This document shows, one piece after another, positions 26,689 to 43,395 of a stretch of DNA of 64,000 nt. The notes beneath the pieces were generated by a model, which was not told the origin of the DNA, did not search any database, and worked only from the letters and a program-made list of their open reading frames with translations. The translations under genes were made by a program, and so were the position numbers. This DNA comes from a virus (taxonomy: Duplodnaviria > Caudoviricetes): positions 4,183-68,182 of IMG/VR virus record IMGVR_UViG_3300037418_002142. The stretch is one strand, 5' to 3'. Position 1 is the stretch's first letter, and every line of letters starts with the position of its first letter.

Positions 26689-26919
26689 TTAGGCGGGGGC
26701 TAGGCCATGCCACGGGGCGGCCCGGCTAGGGGTGCGCCAATGGCCACGGGCGCCACGGCGCCAGCCCCGTGCCTCCATCTCAGCCACCGTTAGGCAATGC
26801 CGATCATCGGTGCCGGGTCGTCCGGTGCGGTGTTTGTCGAACGCGTATGTCGAGTTGAAGTACTCCTTGCATGTTGGGCACTGGCAGCGATCGCCGGACA
26901 ACTTAAGAGTGGCCGTCAC
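26689..26919 (-). CDS. FDxHR zinc-binding protein
   Basis: CQCPTC...F....AFDKHR....HC motif. Confidence 0.75.
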   Translation of the reverse strand: MTATLKLSGDRCQCPTCKEYFNSTYAFDKHRTGRPGTDDRHCLTVAEMEARGWRRGARGHWRTPSRAAPWHGLAPA

Positions 26920-27509
26920 TTCGCGGCCTCCGACATGCCGTCCAGCCGCAACGGCGCTTGGTTACCCCCTTCGCTGATGAACGACACCATGCCAACGCCT
27001 ATCTCGCCATCGTCGTAGCGCTTTACGCGCACTACTAGTCGATGCCATTCACCGTCCTGGTACGGCAAGCGTTTCAGCGTCGGCAGCAGGGATGGCCCCA
27101 CTTCGGCCATCGTGGTCATGGGCGGCATTGTCGCGTCGCTGTCCGACGCCTCGGCACCCGTTGGATCAAACTCCTTCTTGTTGAACTTCTCTACGGCATC
27201 CATCAGTAACGCGCGCACCATGGCCGGCTTGCCGTCCTTCAGCAGCTTCTGTAGTTCGACGTACTTCTGAAGTACATGTACCGCCTTCTCCAGATCCTGG
27301 ATGCCTGCCTTGTCCTTCCAGCGCATAACATAGCGCAGCACTTGCGCCTGAAAATAATCCAAATCTAGCAGCGCTACAATATCCCAATGCTCGATTGCCA
27401 TTCCTTTGTAGTGTTTCCCACCGACCTGCCGGCTATTCGCGCTCGTGCTCACTGAAGCTACCATGTGTGACCTCTGCCCCGTATTCGCCATCGTACTGTT
27501 TCTGTTCAA
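26916..27509 (-). CDS. DUF3310/SaV-like protein (predicted nucleotide kinase family)
   Basis: QVGGKHYK..IEHWD...RY..R...K.GIQDLEKA...L motif; start codon uncertain. Confidence 0.8.
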   Translation of the reverse strand: MNRNSTMANTGQRSHMVASVSTSANSRQVGGKHYKGMAIEHWDIVALLDLDYFQAQVLRYVMRWKDKAGIQDLEKAVHVLQKYVELQKLLKDGKPAMVRALLMDAVEKFNKKEFDPTGAEASDSDATMPPMTTMAEVGPSLLPTLKRLPYQDGEWHRLVVRVKRYDDGEIGVGMVSFISEGGNQAPLRLDGMSEAAK

Positions 27510-28002
27510 GTGTCGTCTTGACCAAGTCGTATAATTCCAATGCCGCAGGCGTCACGTCCGTAAGCCCACGGCTCGCTATTCCCTTCAGCGCATTTCGCGC
27601 CATGCTGGCCATATGCCGATTGCCGCTATCGCACTCTTCGATGGCGAACAGCGCCAGTTCCATGTAATCGCAGTATTTCAGTACTCCCTTTTCGATCGCC
27701 GTAATGTGCACCTCCAACTCGTACTCGTCGCGCACGCTGGCCTCCACCCCGCGCAGCGCTTCCTCCAACAGTTTGAACCGATGCTTGGTTGGCGCCGGCA
27801 CGTCGCCAGTCACGGCCTCCGGCACGTCGTGAAACAGCGCTGCCTCCCACAAGCGGGCCGAGGCCTCGGGGTATACGGTGCGCAGCACGGCCAGCACGCC
27901 AAACGTATGTTCCCCAACAGTTTGCGGATGCTGCGACCGTGCGTTGTGGCAGCGCAGCACGCGAGCCGCGTTGCGCAACAACTTAAGGCGTTTGTAGTTC
28001 AC
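27433..28002 (-). CDS. HD-domain 5'-deoxynucleotidase (YfbR-like)
   Basis: R.H......QTVGEHTFGV, AALFHDVPEAVTGDVPAP.K, K.CD.MEL motifs; probable GTG start at 28002. Confidence 0.85.
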   Translation of the reverse strand: MNYKRLKLLRNAARVLRCHNARSQHPQTVGEHTFGVLAVLRTVYPEASARLWEAALFHDVPEAVTGDVPAPTKHRFKLLEEALRGVEASVRDEYELEVHITAIEKGVLKYCDYMELALFAIEECDSGNRHMASMARNALKGIASRGLTDVTPAALELYDLVKTTLEQKQYDGEYGAEVTHGSFSEHERE

Positions 28003-29044
28003 GCCGTCGCTCCAGCCATTGCATCGCAGCCAACTTCCAGTCCGATGCCTCGCACGCCAGCAGCTCTTCCTGCGCCGCATTGATGCGCTCGTTGCGGGTG
28101 TTCCATACAGTGCCTACGTTCTTCCAGTGCCGCCACGCTTTCCACAGCGGCAGCGCCACGTCGCGCAGGTACGGCACGTTAAGGCGCAGAGTTATTGGCT
28201 TGCTCTCGCTCGTCATGTCGATGCGCGCGCACGACATGAAGCACGTCAGCTCGTTCAGCCATGCTTGCGGCGAGCTGTCCCACCCTGTCCACAATGGGTA
28301 CGGCCTTACACAGTGCGTGCGATACGGGTCGAAATCGACGTTCGCTTCTTGCAGCCGCTTCCATACCTTGCCGCTCTCGTCGTCCAGATACAAGTGCAGG
28401 CTGTCGCTGAACTGGCGGTACACGCCGACCTCCGCCCCCACCGCGCCGGCCACCCATTCCTGCAGAGTGCTGAACTGTACGGCGTTGGCGCCATACGCAC
28501 CCCACACGGCGTCGTTACTCCGGCACAGCACGCTCATGTTCAGCTTGCCGTCGCGCATCTTCAGGAAGATCAGATCGTTGCACGGCATGTCCCTGGTCTT
28601 GGTGCCAAGATCGCTCAAGCAGTCCCATATCTGCAGGACTACCTGCCGCGTGGCGGGCTCGTGCCGCAGCATGCTGACCGATTTCAGCAACTGATCCATT
28701 GCGAAGAATTTGCGCAGTCGGTACCCATACGGAGCATGAAATCGTTCGCCGTCATCGCTGTATTTCGCGATGTTGCCGTTGAAGAATTTTAGGAACGCCA
28801 CGTCGTCATCGCCGTTCAGAATCCACAACGCTTCGAAGAAGTGGAAGAACGGGTTGGCGTCGCGCGTCGAATCGAACAGCACGCGCTGTACCGGCTTGCG
28901 GTAGTCCGTTATCAGCGGCCCATCGTGTTCCAGCGTGGGCATGCCGCGCGGGCTTACGTTGGGCCAGTATTGCCAGCCGCTGTGGCGTATCAGCCACCAC
29001 AACGCTTCGTTAACATCCTCGACCTGAATAACTCTTGCCGTCAT
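27983..29044 (-). CDS. Thymidylate synthase-fold enzyme, probable dUMP hydroxymethylase
   Basis: RDANPFFHF.EALW.L.G, PYGYRLR, TRQVVLQIWD, DMPCN (catalytic Cys), RSNDAVWGAYGANAVQFS (Asn at the dU-specificity position), SLHLY. Confidence 0.88.
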   Translation of the reverse strand: MTARVIQVEDVNEALWWLIRHSGWQYWPNVSPRGMPTLEHDGPLITDYRKPVQRVLFDSTRDANPFFHFFEALWILNGDDDVAFLKFFNGNIAKYSDDGERFHAPYGYRLRKFFAMDQLLKSVSMLRHEPATRQVVLQIWDCLSDLGTKTRDMPCNDLIFLKMRDGKLNMSVLCRSNDAVWGAYGANAVQFSTLQEWVAGAVGAEVGVYRQFSDSLHLYLDDESGKVWKRLQEANVDFDPYRTHCVRPYPLWTGWDSSPQAWLNELTCFMSCARIDMTSESKPITLRLNVPYLRDVALPLWKAWRHWKNVGTVWNTRNERINAAQEELLACEASDWKLAAMQWLERRRELQTP

Positions 29045-29985
29045 ATGACACCCTCGTTTCGTAACATTTTTTTCACCTTTCGCCGTAGCTCGTCTTTGTA
29101 GTCGCAGCCTCCGAATTCTTCGTGCTGCTCCACGCGTATCTCGTCGCGGTGGCGCAAGCAATAGCGTATGTCAGTGACGTCGCGCACGGCCCATGGGCCG
29201 ACTTCTAGATTGGCGCGGCGTAGCTGTACGCTCGTCGGCTTGTCGAACACCATGGGCAGATGCGCGCTCAGCATCTCGTAGAACCTATTGGCCGGGCTGC
29301 AGAATTCTTTATGAGAACGCCGGTCTTCGATGTACAGCCCGAGACCGTGACGCGCGCACTCTTCTCGCAAATCTATATTGGTGTCAGCTTCTTCGATGGT
29401 GCAGCCACGTCGATAGTAGTTTTCCCACGGGCCGGTGCGCGGCACGTTCAGTGTCACTGCGTACCCGCGCGGGGACCACAGATAACGGTCAAATGCATCT
29501 TTACGATCCTTGCGATAACTGCCATAGTAGAACAGGTCGCCATTGTGCGGCGCGCGCTTCTTCCACGGCAGCGGGGCGTAGGTCAGCGCGTTCCAGTTCA
29601 CGTAGCGGCGACGACCCCATCCTTCGCTGAACTTTGGCGCTTCGCACGTCGACCAGATTTCAATGGGTGGCAACCCGCGCCGATGACGCTTGCGAAACGC
29701 GGCGCGGAATGGGCTGCCGCCTTCACTTGTGAACCGCGGCGGAATAATGGTGTAGTCGTTTTGTACCCAGACGATGCGTTCCGCGCGCACAACCATACGA
29801 GCCAGCAGCGGTAGATGCTTGCAGAACGCGTAGGCGCCGTTGACGATGAACAGCGTGTCAACTACTGGCGCCGCGTCGTACACTATGGGCATGCGGCCCC
29901 ACTTGGCCAGCGCGTGCGCAATGCGATGGCTGGCTATGACGCTATCGTGCGACGGCTTGGCAAAGGTCCAGATGGCGGCGCGCAT
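29041..29985 (-). CDS. T4 beta-glucosyltransferase-like DNA glycosyltransferase (GT-B)
   Basis: Collinear matches to T4 BGT as recalled: DTLFIVNG~DRLIVVNS, WVQNDY~YLFTDI (catalytic Asp), YYGSYRKDR~YGGSFRSGQR, GLYIED~ALIIGD, NRFYEMLS..PMVFD~LRVWETMA..VMLID; ATGA-coupled to the hydroxymethylase. Confidence 0.72.
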   Translation of the reverse strand: MRAAIWTFAKPSHDSVIASHRIAHALAKWGRMPIVYDAAPVVDTLFIVNGAYAFCKHLPLLARMVVRAERIVWVQNDYTIIPPRFTSEGGSPFRAAFRKRHRRGLPPIEIWSTCEAPKFSEGWGRRRYVNWNALTYAPLPWKKRAPHNGDLFYYGSYRKDRKDAFDRYLWSPRGYAVTLNVPRTGPWENYYRRGCTIEEADTNIDLREECARHGLGLYIEDRRSHKEFCSPANRFYEMLSAHLPMVFDKPTSVQLRRANLEVGPWAVRDVTDIRYCLRHRDEIRVEQHEEFGGCDYKDELRRKVKKMLRNEGVI

Positions 29986-29988
29986 TGA

Positions 29989-30351
29989 CTAAACCTTTCC
30001 ATCAGCGCGGCGGCCGGTGTTTGGTACGACTTGCACTGCACGGTCGTCCCACAGCTCGATCATGCCGTAATCCTTCTCGCACACGACCTCAAGCCGGGCT
30101 CCAAGATGCTGCTCGGTCCAGTCCTGTATCGTGTTGCGGATGACTGCTATTTCTGAAGTCGTAGCTCTTCCACTATTCTTAGACACGCGCGCGGTGAACA
30201 CCTTCACCGTTTTGCCTTCAGCAATCCAGGCGCGCACTCGCAACGCCATCGGCAGTATAGGAGCGCCAATATGTAACGCGCTCACCCACCCGCTATACTG
30301 CGCCAGCGTACCGTCCAGGTCTACGCCGATCCAACCATTAGTAGCGTTCAT
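29989..30351 (-). CDS. HAD-superfamily phosphatase-like protein
   Basis: IGVDLDGTLA motif I, FTAR motif II, K...ELWDDRA motif IV. Confidence 0.8.
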   Translation of the reverse strand: MNATNGWIGVDLDGTLAQYSGWVSALHIGAPILPMALRVRAWIAEGKTVKVFTARVSKNSGRATTSEIAVIRNTIQDWTEQHLGARLEVVCEKDYGMIELWDDRAVQVVPNTGRRADGKV

Positions 30352-30355
30352 AAAC

Positions 30356-31096
30356 CTACCCCGTAGCCATGCCGTAGCCGTAGCGCGCCGCCATGCCGTA
30401 CACGTTCGCACAGAGCGCTGGATTCACGTCTGCCAGTTTGTGCATGTCGAGCGGTTCGTAACGGCGATATCCGGTATGCTTGTTTCGCGCCACGATGCCG
30501 GGCCACGGCGTACCAGTTGATAGCCCCAGCAGCGCGCGCAGCCTTTTCTGTACACCCGGCGTTGCCACGTCCTCAATGCGAAACGTGTAGTCCGCCTGTT
30601 CCTCCGCATACTTGTTCAGATAGTACCACGCAAACGCGCAGCGCTCTAGCTGCGAAAACTTCGGCTTGCTGCGCAGCGGTATAACGTAGGTATCCTCGAA
30701 CCACTCCCAGATAATGCCAGGAAACACCTTGCCCATGGCCGGTATGACGTGGCGCGGGTCGCGCACGACGTGCAGAATCACATCGAACGTGAAGTCGCTG
30801 CGCCGACAGCCGGGGTAACAGCGCGTCGGGTCCCACGGCCACCACGGATACCACGCGGCATCCTTCGGTATGAACCACAGTCCGGCCGTGCCGTCGGCGC
30901 CCATGCGTTCGTCCTGTACGTCGAGGCCCAACTCCTGCAAGTTGAGCGCTAGGCTGCTCGTGCCGCAACGGCCGCTCCCCATAATCAGCACTTTCTTGCG
31001 TTGCCGTTGCTTCGGGCGCAGTACGGGCACCCCGCGCTTTTCCGCTTTGCTACGCAAGCCCCAGCGCTGCTTCGGCAGCGTGTATTGTTCTCTCAT
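30356..31096 (-). CDS. PAPS-dependent sulfotransferase-fold protein
   Basis: 5'-PSB loop IMGSGRCGTSSL, 3'-PB motif LHVVRDPRHVI, AW..LN, FRIED, C-terminal RYGY. Confidence 0.75.
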   Translation of the reverse strand: MREQYTLPKQRWGLRSKAEKRGVPVLRPKQRQRKKVLIMGSGRCGTSSLALNLQELGLDVQDERMGADGTAGLWFIPKDAAWYPWWPWDPTRCYPGCRRSDFTFDVILHVVRDPRHVIPAMGKVFPGIIWEWFEDTYVIPLRSKPKFSQLERCAFAWYYLNKYAEEQADYTFRIEDVATPGVQKRLRALLGLSTGTPWPGIVARNKHTGYRRYEPLDMHKLADVNPALCANVYGMAARYGYGMATG

Positions 31097-31293
31097 GGCA
31101 ATTTCTGCACCCGTAACGTCTTGCGGCACACGCTCCGCGGTATCTTTATGAGCGCGACGCCAAACTTAGGCTGATACGCTTCGCGGCCGCAAAGCAGGCA
31201 TCGGTATACCGGCACGTCCGTTGCCCAGCCGGTGCCCACCTCTACCGCTGCGTGGATGTCGATTCTGCAAAGCGCGTGCAGAAACTTGCTCAT
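31093..31293 (-). CDS. Small Cys/His protein
   Basis: LCRIDIH...YRCLLCG; ATGA-coupled on both sides. Confidence 0.55.
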   Translation of the reverse strand: MSKFLHALCRIDIHAAVEVGTGWATDVPVYRCLLCGREAYQPKFGVALIKIPRSVCRKTLRVQKLP

Positions 31294-31598
31294 GCCGCTG
31301 TCCTTCGGTTGCCGAACAGTATGTTTGGCACGTTGCCATCCTTGAACCCGCTGCCACGGCACGCGCTGCACTCGCGCTGCGGTTGCACGTCGGGCGGCGG
31401 CCAACTGCTATCCCATTCCGGGTCCTTCGGGCTGACAAAGCCGGTGCAGGCGCCGCACTCGCCGCGAATAACACCGTGTGAGCATTCGTCGTTCCACCAG
31501 TTGGCCACACCGTCGCCCGCGCCTTTGCAGTGCGGACAGCAGGCGGCTTGCAGGGTTATCAGAGCGCGCCCGTAAGCGCTTTTGTGTTCTATAGCCAC
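31290..31598 (-). CDS. DnaJ-type zinc-finger protein
   Basis: CPHCKGAG, CGACTG and CSACRGSG repeats. Confidence 0.65.
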   Translation of the reverse strand: MAIEHKSAYGRALITLQAACCPHCKGAGDGVANWWNDECSHGVIRGECGACTGFVSPKDPEWDSSWPPPDVQPQRECSACRGSGFKDGNVPNILFGNRRTAA

Positions 31599-31759
31599 GG
31601 CAAATCAGCCTCCTCGCATCGAAAGCCGCAGTTGCGGCACTCATACCAAGAACATTCACCAGTCCATGCTTCCTCTTCCCTACGCTCCATGTCGTGGTCG
31701 CACCATAGTCGCTGCCACCACAGTCGGAGCGCGCGCAGCGCAAGCTTCAGTCGTTCCAC
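31589..31759 (-). CDS. Small Cys/His protein (56 aa, below ORF-track cutoff)
   Basis: GTG start; MERLKLALRALRLWWQRLWCDHD...YECRNCG; fills the gap with overlaps at both ends. Confidence 0.5.
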   Translation of the reverse strand: MERLKLALRALRLWWQRLWCDHDMERREEEAWTGECSWYECRNCGFRCEEADLPWL

Positions 31760-32679
31760 GGCAATTCCTCCTGCAACACGGGCCGGTAGATGGAACGTGG
31801 GCGTCCCTCGCCGTTCTTGACGCGCATGTACTTGTCGAACTCACAGAGCGAGTGTTCGATCTCGCGCATCTCGAACGGCCAATCGCACAGAAAGACGTGC
31901 TTGCCCAGCGCGCTTTCGGACGCGATGGCGGGGCGCGCTTCTACGAGCAACTGTCGCATCGCAGCAATGTAATCAGGTTTCTTACCGCTATAGTGACGAT
32001 CACCGGTAAGCAAACGATGTATGCCACGGCGAGCCCCAGGACCAGGATTAGCCCAGCTATTAACATCACGAGCGTGGCTAAGCACGCGAGTATGCCTGAG
32101 ATCACAAGCGATTTCATAGCCAATGAATCCTCCAATGGTGGGGTACGCTTGCAACAGCTCCACGGCCCGCTCCATGCTGGCGTACTTCTTTATCTTGCGG
32201 GTGAGCTTGCGTCGTTCCTTGTGCATGGCCTCCAACGCTTCGCAGATAACCTGTATCTTTGGGTCCGTCCGGCCGGCGTTTGGTATGATATACGCACCCG
32301 TGAATATTTGCTTGCCTTCCTCTTGTCGCTTGGTCAGCAAGTCGATAGCCTTGGCCATGTCCCAGCGGCGCAGCCCGTAGAACAGCGCGTCGTAGGTTTC
32401 AGGCCAGTTGAACAGCCGGAACTGCGCGCACTGGAACAGAATGTCCTCATCTTCGAGATTCCGGCCTTTGTCGAGTAGCGTCACGTAGCGTTTGGTCCAC
32501 TCCTGCGTCACACGATCGAGCTGCCGGTACACGTTGGTGAACTTAAACTCCCGCAGTATCTTGTCCTTGGTCCACGGCCACTTGTCACCGGCCTTGCGAT
32601 TTAAGTAGATGCGATGGCGTTCGTTGATCCACCCCCAGAACGCTTTGATCTGATTCTTCTGCCACTTGAATGATTTCAC
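31747..32679 (-). CDS. aGPT-Pplase1 / 5-hmdU DNA kinase-family helical protein
   Basis: F..WINERH.IY..R....PWT.D.IL..FKFTNVYRQLDRVT, FRLFNW..T, FTGAYI, IGGFIGYEIACDL, NPGPGA.RG, EIEHSLCEFDKY.R motifs. Confidence 0.85.
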   Translation of the reverse strand: MKSFKWQKNQIKAFWGWINERHRIYLNRKAGDKWPWTKDKILREFKFTNVYRQLDRVTQEWTKRYVTLLDKGRNLEDEDILFQCAQFRLFNWPETYDALFYGLRRWDMAKAIDLLTKRQEEGKQIFTGAYIIPNAGRTDPKIQVICEALEAMHKERRKLTRKIKKYASMERAVELLQAYPTIGGFIGYEIACDLRHTRVLSHARDVNSWANPGPGARRGIHRLLTGDRHYSGKKPDYIAAMRQLLVEARPAIASESALGKHVFLCDWPFEMREIEHSLCEFDKYMRVKNGEGRPRSIYRPVLQEELPWND

Positions 32680-40660: not shown

Positions 40661-41500
40661 TTACTCCTTCGTGGCACTTAGTGGTGGCGGCTCGATACCT
40701 ACGAGCTTGCATGCCTCGCGGTATCGTATGTTGTTTGTAACCTTGTGTCCGTGTTTGTCAACAGCCTTGCTCTTTGTGATCTGATCACAGAGTAAGTGCA
40801 AAGCCGCATACAGCGTGCCTACTGCGCGCCGGTGTTCCTCGTACTGCACGACGTGCGGGTAGTGCGAGGGGTACTGATGCATTGCATCAAGCGGTAACAA
40901 GCAACCGTTATCGCTGACCACGTAGACAGCGGCGCTTAAGCTAACCGCGTTCTCTAGCTTTTGCAGCCGCTCAACGATGGCGTTTAACTCCTCGGCTGTA
41001 GCAAACTCTTGCAGTTCGTGAGTGGGCATGCCTTGCGCGTAGCTTGGGTATTGTTCCGCGTAGAAGCCGCTGATGACCTTACCTCGTAGTTCTATGCTTT
41101 CCTTAGCTAGCGGCGCTATCAGTTCTTTCTCGATTCGTTCGGCGTAGCGTTCCGCAGTGTTTGCCTTTATGTCTTCTGCAAGTCCTGAACAGGTTACGCC
41201 GCTTTCCATAGCCAGGCGCACAATGTTTACCAGACGACGGCGCAACGATTGCTTCACGCCGCCAGCTTCTTTATTCTCGCCCGTAATTCCTTCGTCCTTT
41301 TGTGGCGCAGCCCAGTCCTTAAGCTGTAACCGTAGCGCCCACTGTCCGTCGTGTCCGCGACGTAGCCATTCGCCAACGCGTATGGAGTTGCCTCGCGCGT
41401 CCTCTATTCCTACAATGCTGGCGTCTGGCCCCTTGTCAACCACAATGTCGATGTACTCGCTGTCGAACTTCACGCCGCCAGCTTCTTTATTCTCGCCCAT
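40661..41500 (-). CDS. Mosaic hypothetical protein
   Basis: GGAGGA RBS and ATG at 41500; GENKEAGGVK occurs twice. Confidence 0.55.
   Translation of the reverse strand: MGENKEAGGVKFDSEYIDIVVDKGPDASIVGIEDARGNSIRVGEWLRRGHDGQWALRLQLKDWAAPQKDEGITGENKEAGGVKQSLRRRLVNIVRLAMESGVTCSGLAEDIKANTAERYAERIEKELIAPLAKESIELRGKVISGFYAEQYPSYAQGMPTHELQEFATAEELNAIVERLQKLENAVSLSAAVYVVSDNGCLLPLDAMHQYPSHYPHVVQYEEHRRAVGTLYAALHLLCDQITKSKAVDKHGHKVTNNIRYREACKLVGIEPPPLSATKE
41252..41498. repeat. 31-bp perfect direct repeat pair (41252-41282 and 41468-41498)
   Basis: CTTCACGCCGCCAGCTTCTTTATTCTCGCCC, copies 216 bp apart. Confidence 0.95.
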
Positions 41501-43395
41501 GACTCCTCCGAATATTTTGGTTCTGCCAGCATTGGAACTTTCAATTTTATATCGCACATGGCGCGGGCAATGCGCGGCCCGTACTTGCGGCTCGGCGCCA
41601 TCACCATCAGTTCGTCGTGCACCTGCACCGCGATACGGCACTTGTCACCAACGTCCTCATGCACGTTGATCATGCCTTGCTTGGTGCAGTCCGCCGCGCT
41701 GGGCTGAATGAGATAGTTGAGCATCTTGTAAGCGAAGTCGATCGACTTGTACACCGGCTCGCCAAACTCGTCGTATATGGGTTTGCCAGTATGCTTGTTG
41801 ATCAACTTCACCATGCGCGGCGGCTCGCAGTAGTATTGCCGGCCGCCCCATGTAATAAGCGGCTTGTCGTCCTCAGCCAGCCGTTTCAGGTATTTCATCA
41901 GGCCGCGTATGCCGGGTATCGCCTGTAGCACGGCATCACGCAGTTTCTTGGCCGTGCCCACGTCGATTTCAAGTCGGGCCGCCAGCTTTTCCACGCCCAT
42001 GCCGTACACGATGCCGAACACCGTTATCTTGACGTGCTTGCGCGGGAAGTCGATACCAATTTCCTTGAGGATCAACAGTCGCACGAAATCGTGTACGTCC
42101 ATGTTGGGATCTTTGTTGTACGCCTCCGCCAGAATGCCGTCTTCGAAGTGCGCCAGGAAGCGCAGCTCCTGCTGCGAATAGTCGCAGCAGATCATCACCA
42201 TGCCTTCATCCGGTACGATGAAGTCGCGTAGCCCTAGGAACTGATAGTTAAACTCGTCGGCGAGCCACTTCTGCAGAAGTAGGAGGGTATCTCGATTCTG
42301 ACTTTCTTCGACGTCAGTCGGCACATTTTGCAGGTTAGGGTCACTACTGCTGAATCGACCGCTCCTCGCACCACCACCACCGTCGTTTGGAACTTGGTTA
42401 AAGCGCGGATTAATGCGCCCACCCGTTACCTCGCTTTGCTCGAGCCATGGTTTGATAAAGCTACTGATGTACTTGCGGCACACGCTATGCACGGCCAGCA
42501 GATCCAGCAGTTTCTTGTCCGTACAGGTCTTACGCAGTATGTCGATCTTGGTGCTCTGCTGACCCTTCGGGGTCTTGACCACTGCGCTGAGCTTGCCGGC
42601 CCGTAGCAACGCGGCGCCTAGTTGCTTGCCGCTGTCCACGTTGAACTCTTTGGCTAACGGTTGACCGTACTTGGACACGCCAAGCCGCCGGTGTATGCGC
42701 TGCACCAACAGCGCATCCAGCTTCTCGAACACGCGCAACGCTTCCTTCAGTCGCTTGCGGCTAACACGTACCCCGCTCTGCTCCATGCCCAACACAATAG
42801 GAGCTACGGCCAGCTCGCGTTCGTACGCGGCGCGCATGCCGCGCTCTACTATCTTGGGGTACAGATGTTCGTACAGCCCTTTTGTGCGGCGCGTGTCGCC
42901 GTTGGCGTACTTGCCCACCAGCTCGCCGGGGGCGCGACAAATATATTCGCCCCACTTGCCGTGCTGGTTCTTACTGCGCAGCGCTGGCTCGTTTTCAAGC
43001 AGCCAGTCACGCAGTCTAGACTGCTCCTCCGGGGGCATGTTCAGGTGCTTGTGCGCCAGCGGCTTCAGTTTCAGTTCGCGTTCGTAAGGGTCGTTGAGGA
43101 ACGCCAGAAATATGGTGTCGTCGAATTGGCGCGGCCGGAGCCCGAAATAACAGCGAGCCACATCCAAATCAAATCCATTGTTGTGAAATACGGTGCGGTA
43201 CTCGAACGCTTCACGTAGCCGAGCACGCGCTGTGCCAACGCTACAGTTGTTCCCACTCGGGTGCCCCCATGCCAAGTATTCCGCCCGCTGCCCAGGTAAC
43301 TTAATGCTGACCCCGACTGGGCGCGGCGGGTAGTTGGGTCGCGATTCGATCTTCTCGGTCTCGAAGTCTACAACGGAGCGGTCACTTGTCGCCAC
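41470..43395 (-). CDS. polA: DNA polymerase, family A
   Basis: DFET exo I, HN..FD exo II, GRFSSSDPNLQN, DYSQQELR (motif A), K...FGIVYGMG (B), NYLIQ..AAD, QVHDEL (C). Confidence 0.95.
   Translation of the reverse strand: MATSDRSVVDFETEKIESRPNYPPRPVGVSIKLPGQRAEYLAWGHPSGNNCSVGTARARLREAFEYRTVFHNNGFDLDVARCYFGLRPRQFDDTIFLAFLNDPYERELKLKPLAHKHLNMPPEEQSRLRDWLLENEPALRSKNQHGKWGEYICRAPGELVGKYANGDTRRTKGLYEHLYPKIVERGMRAAYERELAVAPIVLGMEQSGVRVSRKRLKEALRVFEKLDALLVQRIHRRLGVSKYGQPLAKEFNVDSGKQLGAALLRAGKLSAVVKTPKGQQSTKIDILRKTCTDKKLLDLLAVHSVCRKYISSFIKPWLEQSEVTGGRINPRFNQVPNDGGGGARSGRFSSSDPNLQNVPTDVEESQNRDTLLLLQKWLADEFNYQFLGLRDFIVPDEGMVMICCDYSQQELRFLAHFEDGILAEAYNKDPNMDVHDFVRLLILKEIGIDFPRKHVKITVFGIVYGMGVEKLAARLEIDVGTAKKLRDAVLQAIPGIRGLMKYLKRLAEDDKPLITWGGRQYYCEPPRMVKLINKHTGKPIYDEFGEPVYKSIDFAYKMLNYLIQPSAADCTKQGMINVHEDVGDKCRIAVQVHDELMVMAPSRKYGPRIARAMCDIKLKVPMLAEPKYSEESWARIKKLAA

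Follow-up and report, generated by a model that had tools for sequence, protein, structure and literature searches.

A phage sulfotransferase (ST), encoded within an operon for thymidine hypermodification, is proposed here to act as a tailoring enzyme of that pathway by sulfating the sugar carried by glycosylated hmU in DNA, a reading that we consider to have about an even chance of being right. The phage probably replaces thymine with hydroxymethyluracil (hmU) and probably hangs a sugar on it; sulfate may be present on the sugars of its DNA, which would be a chemistry not yet described for DNA. Known DNA decorations include sugars, amino acids, polyamines, and acetyl or carbamoyl groups. The first-pass annotation of this DNA stated that no characterized DNA base sulfation was known, and the literature search agrees with this, having returned no paper describing DNA sulfation and no paper linking sulfotransferases to phage DNA modification. 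The system falls within thymidine hypermodification as a variant and is not a system of a new kind; what is new here is a distinct and well-modelled ST family, the statistics of its gene neighbourhoods, and a clade with altered donor-side residues. The analysis shows the fold and family of the enzyme, its conserved donor-loop residues, the structure of its operon, and the conservation of its gene neighbourhood; its acceptor, donor, and product are inferred. A broader proposal is that an hmU-linked sugar bears a sulfate ester in the virion DNA not only of this phage but also of its metagenomic relatives and, as a parallel case, of the cultured Ralstonia phage phiRSL1. It would be the first sulfated modification of natural DNA, made by a new ST family repeatedly recruited to phage DNA-glycosylation operons, and we place this wider claim slightly below an even chance.

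The window (the whole stretch of 64,000 nucleotides that was analyzed) belongs to a phage genome of 68,182 bp, which is complete and has terminal repeats. The ST gene occupies positions 30356-31096 on the minus strand, from an ATG at 31096 to a TAG at 30358-30356, and encodes 246 amino acids. A longer, 257-aa reading with a GTG start is unlikely; the methionine of the 246-aa form is the start in the database gene call and in a 79%-identical orthologue (L001). This ATG overlaps the TGA (ATGA) of a 66-aa ORF located just upstream (31093-31293, minus strand), which has a 66-aa counterpart at the same place in L001, and the ATG of which in turn overlaps the stop codon of a Cys-rich ORF of 102 aa. 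On the other side, 4 nt lie between the ST stop and the ATG of a 120-aa HAD gene. Comparison with the L001 orthologue gives a dN/dS of 0.13, indicating purifying selection and, thus, a working protein-coding gene. The run reads small ORFs, ST, small HAD phosphatase, GT-B glycosyltransferase, ThyS-like protein, and HD nucleotidase, with overlapping genes and with HMUDK_hel upstream. The gene order and overlaps bear out the earlier placement of the ST two genes upstream of the glycosyltransferase (GT), in a translationally coupled run that belongs to an hmU-type DNA-modification operon.

When the protein was searched alone against Pfam, it gave a Sulfotransfer_4 match of 15.6 bits (cut-off 22.8; E 0.014), restricted to residues 46-70, and nothing significant was found in PHROGs, in NCBIfam, or, by sequence, in the PDB. 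A word-index protein search returned only five close homologues. The profile of these five, searched against 1.8 billion representative proteins (E up to 0.001), yielded about 1,055 relatives, all metagenome representatives. Among 104 aligned relatives, 39 match Sulfotransfer_3 and 13 match Sulfotransfer_4 (E up to 0.01). The family profile matches CurM ST with an E of 0.011; the regions that it aligns to the CurM and olefin-synthase ST domains are the 3'-phosphate motif and the strand with R(I/Y)ED. Structure prediction with AF2 gave a pLDDT of 38 from the shallow five-homologue alignment; the 104-sequence alignment was required for a good model (pLDDT 95, pTM 0.92). The best Foldseek matches of this model are NDST1, 3-OST, TPST, and CurM ST, with probabilities of 0.97-1.0. 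In an exhaustive VIA-align comparison, places 1 to 22 are all taken by sulfotransferases (Z 11.7-7.4), and P-loop kinases score a Z of 7.2 or below. The highest-ranking structures, aligned over about 175 residues, are those of the olefin synthase/CurM ST class (4gox, 4gbm; Z 11.7 for 4gox) and of TPST (5wri, 3ap3; Z 10.5 for TPST1 and 10.0 for TPST2), the lead of about 1 Z unit amounting to a tie. The predicted structure and the Pfam matches of the relatives uphold the first assignment of the protein to the sulfotransferases, and its membership in this fold and superfamily is accepted. As it falls below the Pfam gathering thresholds, it represents a new family inside the PAPS-dependent sulfotransferase superfamily, outside every curated Pfam family. 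The family was not found by tblastn with three of its members in 50,697 GenBank phage records. A diverged 5-HMUDK kinase was considered as another identity and rejected: the loop has no Walker A Lys, the structural matches are sulfotransferases, PF18748 gives no match, and hhalign aligns only 22 loop columns with an M6-like kinase (probability 1.4%).

The two PAPS-binding motifs named in the first annotation are found at residues 40-47 (GSGRCGTS) and 110-116 (VVRDPRH) in the 246-aa numbering; the RIED motif is located at 173-176, and the terminal YGY is part of RYGYG at 238-242. They are not due to chance: the 104-sequence alignment shows little or no variation at R43, G45, T46, E63, R112, P114, E175, and G240-Y241. 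For example, R43, G45, and T46, in the 5'-phosphosulfate loop, are each retained in 99 of the 104 relatives, and the loop aligns to the PRSGST of the CurM and olefin-synthase STs. In the 3'-phosphate motif, R112 and P114 are invariant, and the position eight residues after the Arg is Ser in 97 of 104 sequences and Ala120 in the window clade. The S120 of the relatives aligns with the Ser of the CurM ST 3'-phosphate motif (VIES). E63 (102/104) lies 20 residues past R43; the catalytic Glu of CurM/TPST-type enzymes presumably occupies this same position, about 20 residues past the loop, and this spacing suggests that E63 is the counterpart of the catalytic Glu of TPST and CurM.

The ST family has in common with the CurM/olefin-synthase STs and TPST a 5'-phosphosulfate loop of the RSGT type, a 3'-phosphate motif of the RxPxxxxS type, and, after the latter, an R(I/Y)ED strand; the window clade lacks the Ser of the motif. 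The window ST shares only 15-17% identity with these enzymes, is smaller (246 aa), and possesses a structured basic N-terminal arm. Its acceptor is taken to be neither an ACP-bound polyketide, as for CurM, nor a peptide tyrosine, as for TPST. The arm had been described earlier as suited to nucleic-acid binding. It is indeed present, residues 1-35 containing 13 K/R and only 2 D/E, but it is dispensable for a role in DNA clusters, as many of the relatives found there (forms of 200-220 aa) lack it.

The neighbouring genes all lie on the minus strand. The gene that follows the ST (29989-30351) encodes a 120-aa small HAD phosphatase (DLDGTL), which is PNKP-phosphatase-like (phrog_415 polynucleotide kinase, E 4e-7) and weakly alike ORF228 of phiRSL1 (HAD_PNKP); among the loci compared, this insertion is found only in the window's own ST clade. 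Next comes a 314-aa protein (29041-29985), which alone gives no Pfam match, and whose family profile finds nothing in the PDB by sequence. Its predicted structure in the ESM Atlas has a TM of 0.79 to the T4-Gluco-transf cluster and of 0.73-0.75 to Glyco_trans_1_2 clusters, and 6 of 38 homologues match Glyco_trans_1_2. Language-model and predicted-structure similarity, together with these weak Pfam matches of relatives, point with moderate confidence to a GT-B glycosyltransferase resembling T4 beta-glucosyltransferase. This GT family counts more than 370 homologues in metagenomes, at about 40-45% identity; kinship with the GT-B-like genes located beside other ST members was not detectable. The following gene, the ATG of which overlaps the GT stop (ATGA), encodes a ThyS-like protein (27983-29044; PF00303 E 5e-16, phrog_5131 E 3e-98), a probable dUMP hydroxymethylase with 39% identity to a homologue of the M6-like phage PAC9. 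A YfbR-like HD 5'-deoxynucleotidase (27433-28080; PF12917 E 4e-13) comes after it, an order kept at almost every related locus. A DUF3310 protein (26916-27509; phrog_5839 E 2e-19, weak PF11753) marks where the syntenic module ends, and its gene occupies the same position in M6-like phages.

Upstream of the ST and of the 66-aa ORF, the 102-aa Cys-rich protein (31290-31598) contains repeated CxxCxGxG-like motifs with a weak DnaJ_CXXCXGXG match, and is conserved in the closest relative, L001 (72% identity). Further upstream, HMUDK_hel (31747-32679, 310 aa; PF18723 E 5.5e-62), formerly known as aGPT-Pplase clade 1, has neither a kinase domain nor a Walker A motif and is 34% identical to the aGPT-Pplase1 of an M6-like phage. 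In M6-like phages, it adjoins a P-loop kinase. The reconstituted M6 reaction did not need HMUDK_hel (aGPT-Pplase1) (PMC8989533).

In phages M6, PaMx11, ViI, PhiW-14, and SP10, the 5-hmdU present in DNA is modified after replication: a P-loop kinase (PF18748) phosphorylates hmU, and aGPT-Pplase2/ADDT then displaces the phosphate with an amino acid or an amine (PMC5889632, PMC8989533). Post-replicative modification is likewise assumed for the window phage, which shares with them the ThyS-like protein, the HD nucleotidase, DUF3310, HMUDK_hel/aGPT-Pplase1, and synteny. Unlike in the M6-type pathways, the kinase and ADDT are absent here, and the GT, the sulfotransferase, and the HAD phosphatase are found in their place. 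In the complete 68,182-bp genome, no match at E up to 1 was obtained for the 5-HMUDK kinase (PF18748), for which the positive control worked, or for ADDT/aGPT-Pplase2 (PF18724), and neither a TAGT nor any other Walker-A kinase was found. An APS kinase, an ATP sulfurylase, and a CysD/H-type gene were also searched for in the complete genome, and none was found; the lack of a PAPS-synthesis gene, noted earlier for the window, thus extends to the whole genome and counts against sulfation of the sugar. The phage belongs to an uncultured lineage, and its host could possibly be a xanthomonad-like proteobacterium. Its family A DNA polymerase (41470-43395, minus strand) is only about 36-37% identical to those of the nearest GenBank phages, Stenotrophomonas AXL3 and Pseudoxanthomonas PW916.

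The T4 hmC glucosylation and TAGT systems offer another comparison, as a hydroxymethyl pyrimidine in DNA is glycosylated there by a phage GT, as proposed for the window. The window GT resembles T4 beta-glucosyltransferase in its predicted structure, and relatives of the ST use TAGT. Nevertheless, the modified base of the window phage is probably hmU, whereas that of T4 is hmC, and we know of no sulfation step in the T4 hmC or TAGT systems.

The neighbourhood of the ST family was scored with reference proteins at 16 distinct loci with usable flanks. A ThyS-like gene is present near the ST at 12 of the 16, and 11 of these 12 also contain HMUDK_hel. Within these hmU-type loci, a TAGT and/or a GT-B is found within two genes of the ST in all but one (11/12), in orders such as HEL-TAGT-ST-ThyS-HD, HEL-GT-ST-rSAM/SPASM-ThyS-HD, or TAGT-GT-ST-ThyS. 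The identity of the ST to the window protein ranges there from 79% down to about 30%, and both the gene order and the GT type vary. This neighbourhood analysis had been suggested as a check on the first-pass annotation, which would have lost ground with homologues unlinked to base-modification genes; homologues as distant as about 30% identity are in fact linked to ThyS-like, HMUDK_hel, TAGT/GT-B, and HD genes, at 12 distinct loci. These loci are not fully independent, because many of the phages share a PolA/SNF2 replication module. In most of them, HMUDK_hel adjoins the GT rather than the ST, and the constant partner of the ST family is the glycosyltransferase, not HMUDK_hel. A search for related loci using narrower alignments returned three viral and four metagenome loci, and none in GTDB genomes.

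The four loci outside these 12 are diverse. In a bacterial GT2/GT4 glycan cluster, the ST domain ends a 938-aa protein; in a marine phage, the ST belongs to a sugar-tailoring run of GT2, pyruvyl transferase, and DegT; and in a phage structural module, an ST relative is located between the portal and adaptor genes. In the fourth, an ST fusion protein lies beside ADDT and a P-loop kinase. This 460-aa fusion (L008:2913-4295, and also L009) joins an N-terminal domain, for which no identification was obtained, to the ST domain, next to ADDT, GATase_6, and a faint Ploopntkinase3 match. This places the ST family alongside the canonical amino-acid branch of the thymidine hypermodification pathways. 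Conversely, the window GT family occurs with HMUDK_hel, ThyS, and HD at L025:7694-13223, with neither an ST nor a kinase in 19 kb. The ST, therefore, looks like a tailoring step that an hmU-glycosylation core can take on or do without, and HMUDK_hel-GT-ThyS-HD arrangements of this type constitute a widespread, uncharacterized, kinase-less hmU glycosylation module.

A cultured phage provides an independent parallel to the window operon. In Ralstonia phage phiRSL1 (NC_010811), the uncharacterized ORF228-238 group in one operon, as in the window, a ThyS-like protein, HMUDK_hel, GTs, a sulfotransferase, and a PNKP-type HAD. The HMUDK_hel match has an E of 2.5e-39, with 31% identity to that of the window; the sulfotransferase is a Sulfotransfer_2 (carbohydrate-type) enzyme (E 4e-21); and the operon also contains an APS kinase (57 bits), three TAGT-like GTs, and two NDP-sugar pyrophosphorylase-type genes. 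No 5-HMUDK was found in this phage. Several features differ from the window. The phiRSL1 sulfotransferase is of a different family and only distantly similar (a weak match, E 1.7e-4, with the family profile; hhalign probability 37%), its GTs are TAGT whereas that of the window is a BGT-like GT-B, and the phage encodes an APS kinase and NDP-sugar pyrophosphorylases of its own, both of which the window genome lacks. The recruitment of a different ST family and of a PAPS-making enzyme to the same kind of operon supports PAPS-using sulfation in DNA pathways, and phiRSL1 would thereby offer the best, albeit indirect, evidence that sulfation belongs to these pathways and uses PAPS. A literature search for phiRSL1 together with sulfotransferase returned nothing relevant.

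In the proposed pathway, the ThyS-like enzyme would make hmdUMP, the HD nucleotidase would help to deplete dTMP, and 5-hmdU would enter DNA. The GT-B, probably with the help of HMUDK_hel, would place a sugar on the hmU hydroxyl, and the ST, taken to be an active enzyme of a family not described before, would transfer sulfate from host PAPS to a hydroxyl of the hmU-linked sugar. The acceptor could be the DNA-linked sugar or the sugar donor prior to transfer, and the product would be an anionic sulfo-glycosyl-hmU. Speculatively, the PNKP-type HAD may strip the 3'-phosphate of the by-product PAP, the only grounds for this idea being that it is of the PNKP-phosphatase type and recurs in phiRSL1. 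The first-pass annotation had raised two chemistries, sulfation of the sugar of glycosyl-hmU or direct sulfation of hmU. The genomic context favours the sugar, since the constant neighbour of the ST is a GT, and since members of the family outside hmU clusters are also found in sugar contexts.

Direct sulfation of the 5-hydroxymethyl group of hmU in DNA would give the ST another function, the sulfate serving as a leaving group in place of the phosphate added by the kinase, and HMUDK_hel catalyzing its displacement by a nucleophile. The olefin-synthase/CurM 'activating' sulfotransferases sulfate a hydroxyl to create a leaving group, and it is this class that provides the best structural match, but its lead over TPST is a tie. 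The complete genome contains HMUDK_hel without a PF18748 kinase, another Walker-A kinase, or ADDT, and the kinase is also missing from phiRSL1 and from two further phage records with an ST, of which one is complete. However, HMUDK_hel seems not to need an activating enzyme, because L025 combines it with a GT and ThyS while lacking both ST and kinase; it usually adjoins the GT, not the ST; the ST members of bacterial glycan clusters have no hmU substrate; and the glycosyltransferase would be left without a role. We, therefore, regard activation by sulfate as unlikely. It is a quite improbable alternative that the acceptor is not DNA at all, the ST acting on a virion-protein glycan, a host surface polysaccharide, or a small molecule, and owing its place in the operon to co-expression only. 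The relatives located in the portal/adaptor module, in the bacterial polysaccharide cluster, and in the marine phage sugar-tailoring run are consistent with such acceptors. Nevertheless, the window ST overlaps, or lies 4 nt from, nucleotide- and DNA-modification genes, the linkage is kept over 30-79% identity despite shifts in gene order and GT type, and the adjacent GT resembles the T4 DNA glucosyltransferase.

The residues particular to the window clade bear on the donor. Five changes, H62D, S72G, H94Y, E97C, and S120A, distinguish this clade from the rest of the family. Residue 62, which precedes the invariant Glu, is His in 98 of 104 relatives and Asp in the window clade; like S120, it is kept in all genomic contexts except this clade. 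The H94-x-G-E-R loop, which may belong to the acceptor site, is conserved only among ST members in hmU clusters, and is changed in the window clade. Because two near-invariant residues are replaced (H62D, S120A), the use of the donor by this clade is uncertain, and, with the altered H94xGER loop, the donor or the acceptor may differ or the activity may be reduced. Pushed further, these changes could mean that the chemistry was altered or lost, the enzyme using another donor (APS, which lacks the 3'-phosphate, or even ATP, as a kinase) or being a non-catalytic binding subunit. The alignment of S120 with the 3'-phosphate Ser of CurM ST and the insertion of the HAD phosphatase in this clade only would fit this view, to which we give a slim chance. 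Against it, R43-G45-T46, E63, R112, and P114 are retained, the loop has no Walker A Lys, and there is no likeness to 5-HMUDK past the loop. Moreover, the substituted residues are fixed among the members of the clade, which, with the low dN/dS, points to a working, specialized enzyme. The five substitutions are, thus, tentatively read from the alignment as a specialization, perhaps of donor handling, rather than as decay.

Through hypermodification of their DNA, phages defeat restriction enzymes and CRISPR nucleases, and these hypermodifications have been a source of DNA-labelling enzymes. If the proposed sulfation takes place, each modified base would gain a fixed negative charge from the sulfated sugar in the major groove, with effects on packaging, protein recognition, and nuclease resistance, and phage replication would be tied to host sulfur activation. 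The ST family would then constitute a DNA-glycan sulfotransferase of practical interest. Being cultured, phiRSL1 is a system in which the general idea can be directly tested.

Several other genes were observed in or around the ST family. A complete 48-kb phage record, which carries an ST family member (L005), encodes a 291-aa ORF (L014:973-1848, minus strand) combining an APS-kinase-like P-loop (PF01583 27 bits, AAA_33 31 bits) with an HxGH cytidylyltransferase/NMNAT-like domain. It could be a PAPS- or nucleotide-sugar-related enzyme, with matches too weak to call it a PAPS synthase, and no counterpart was found in the window phage genome. At three loci (L002, L007, and L012), the gene right after the ST encodes a radical SAM/SPASM enzyme of about 320-335 aa, which might oxidize or rearrange a sugar; such an enzyme is also present at a fourth locus (L006:17046-18008). 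Finally, one 467-aa member of the ST family (P0150) has a Prim-Pol domain (PF09250, E 1e-8) fused ahead of its sulfotransferase domain.
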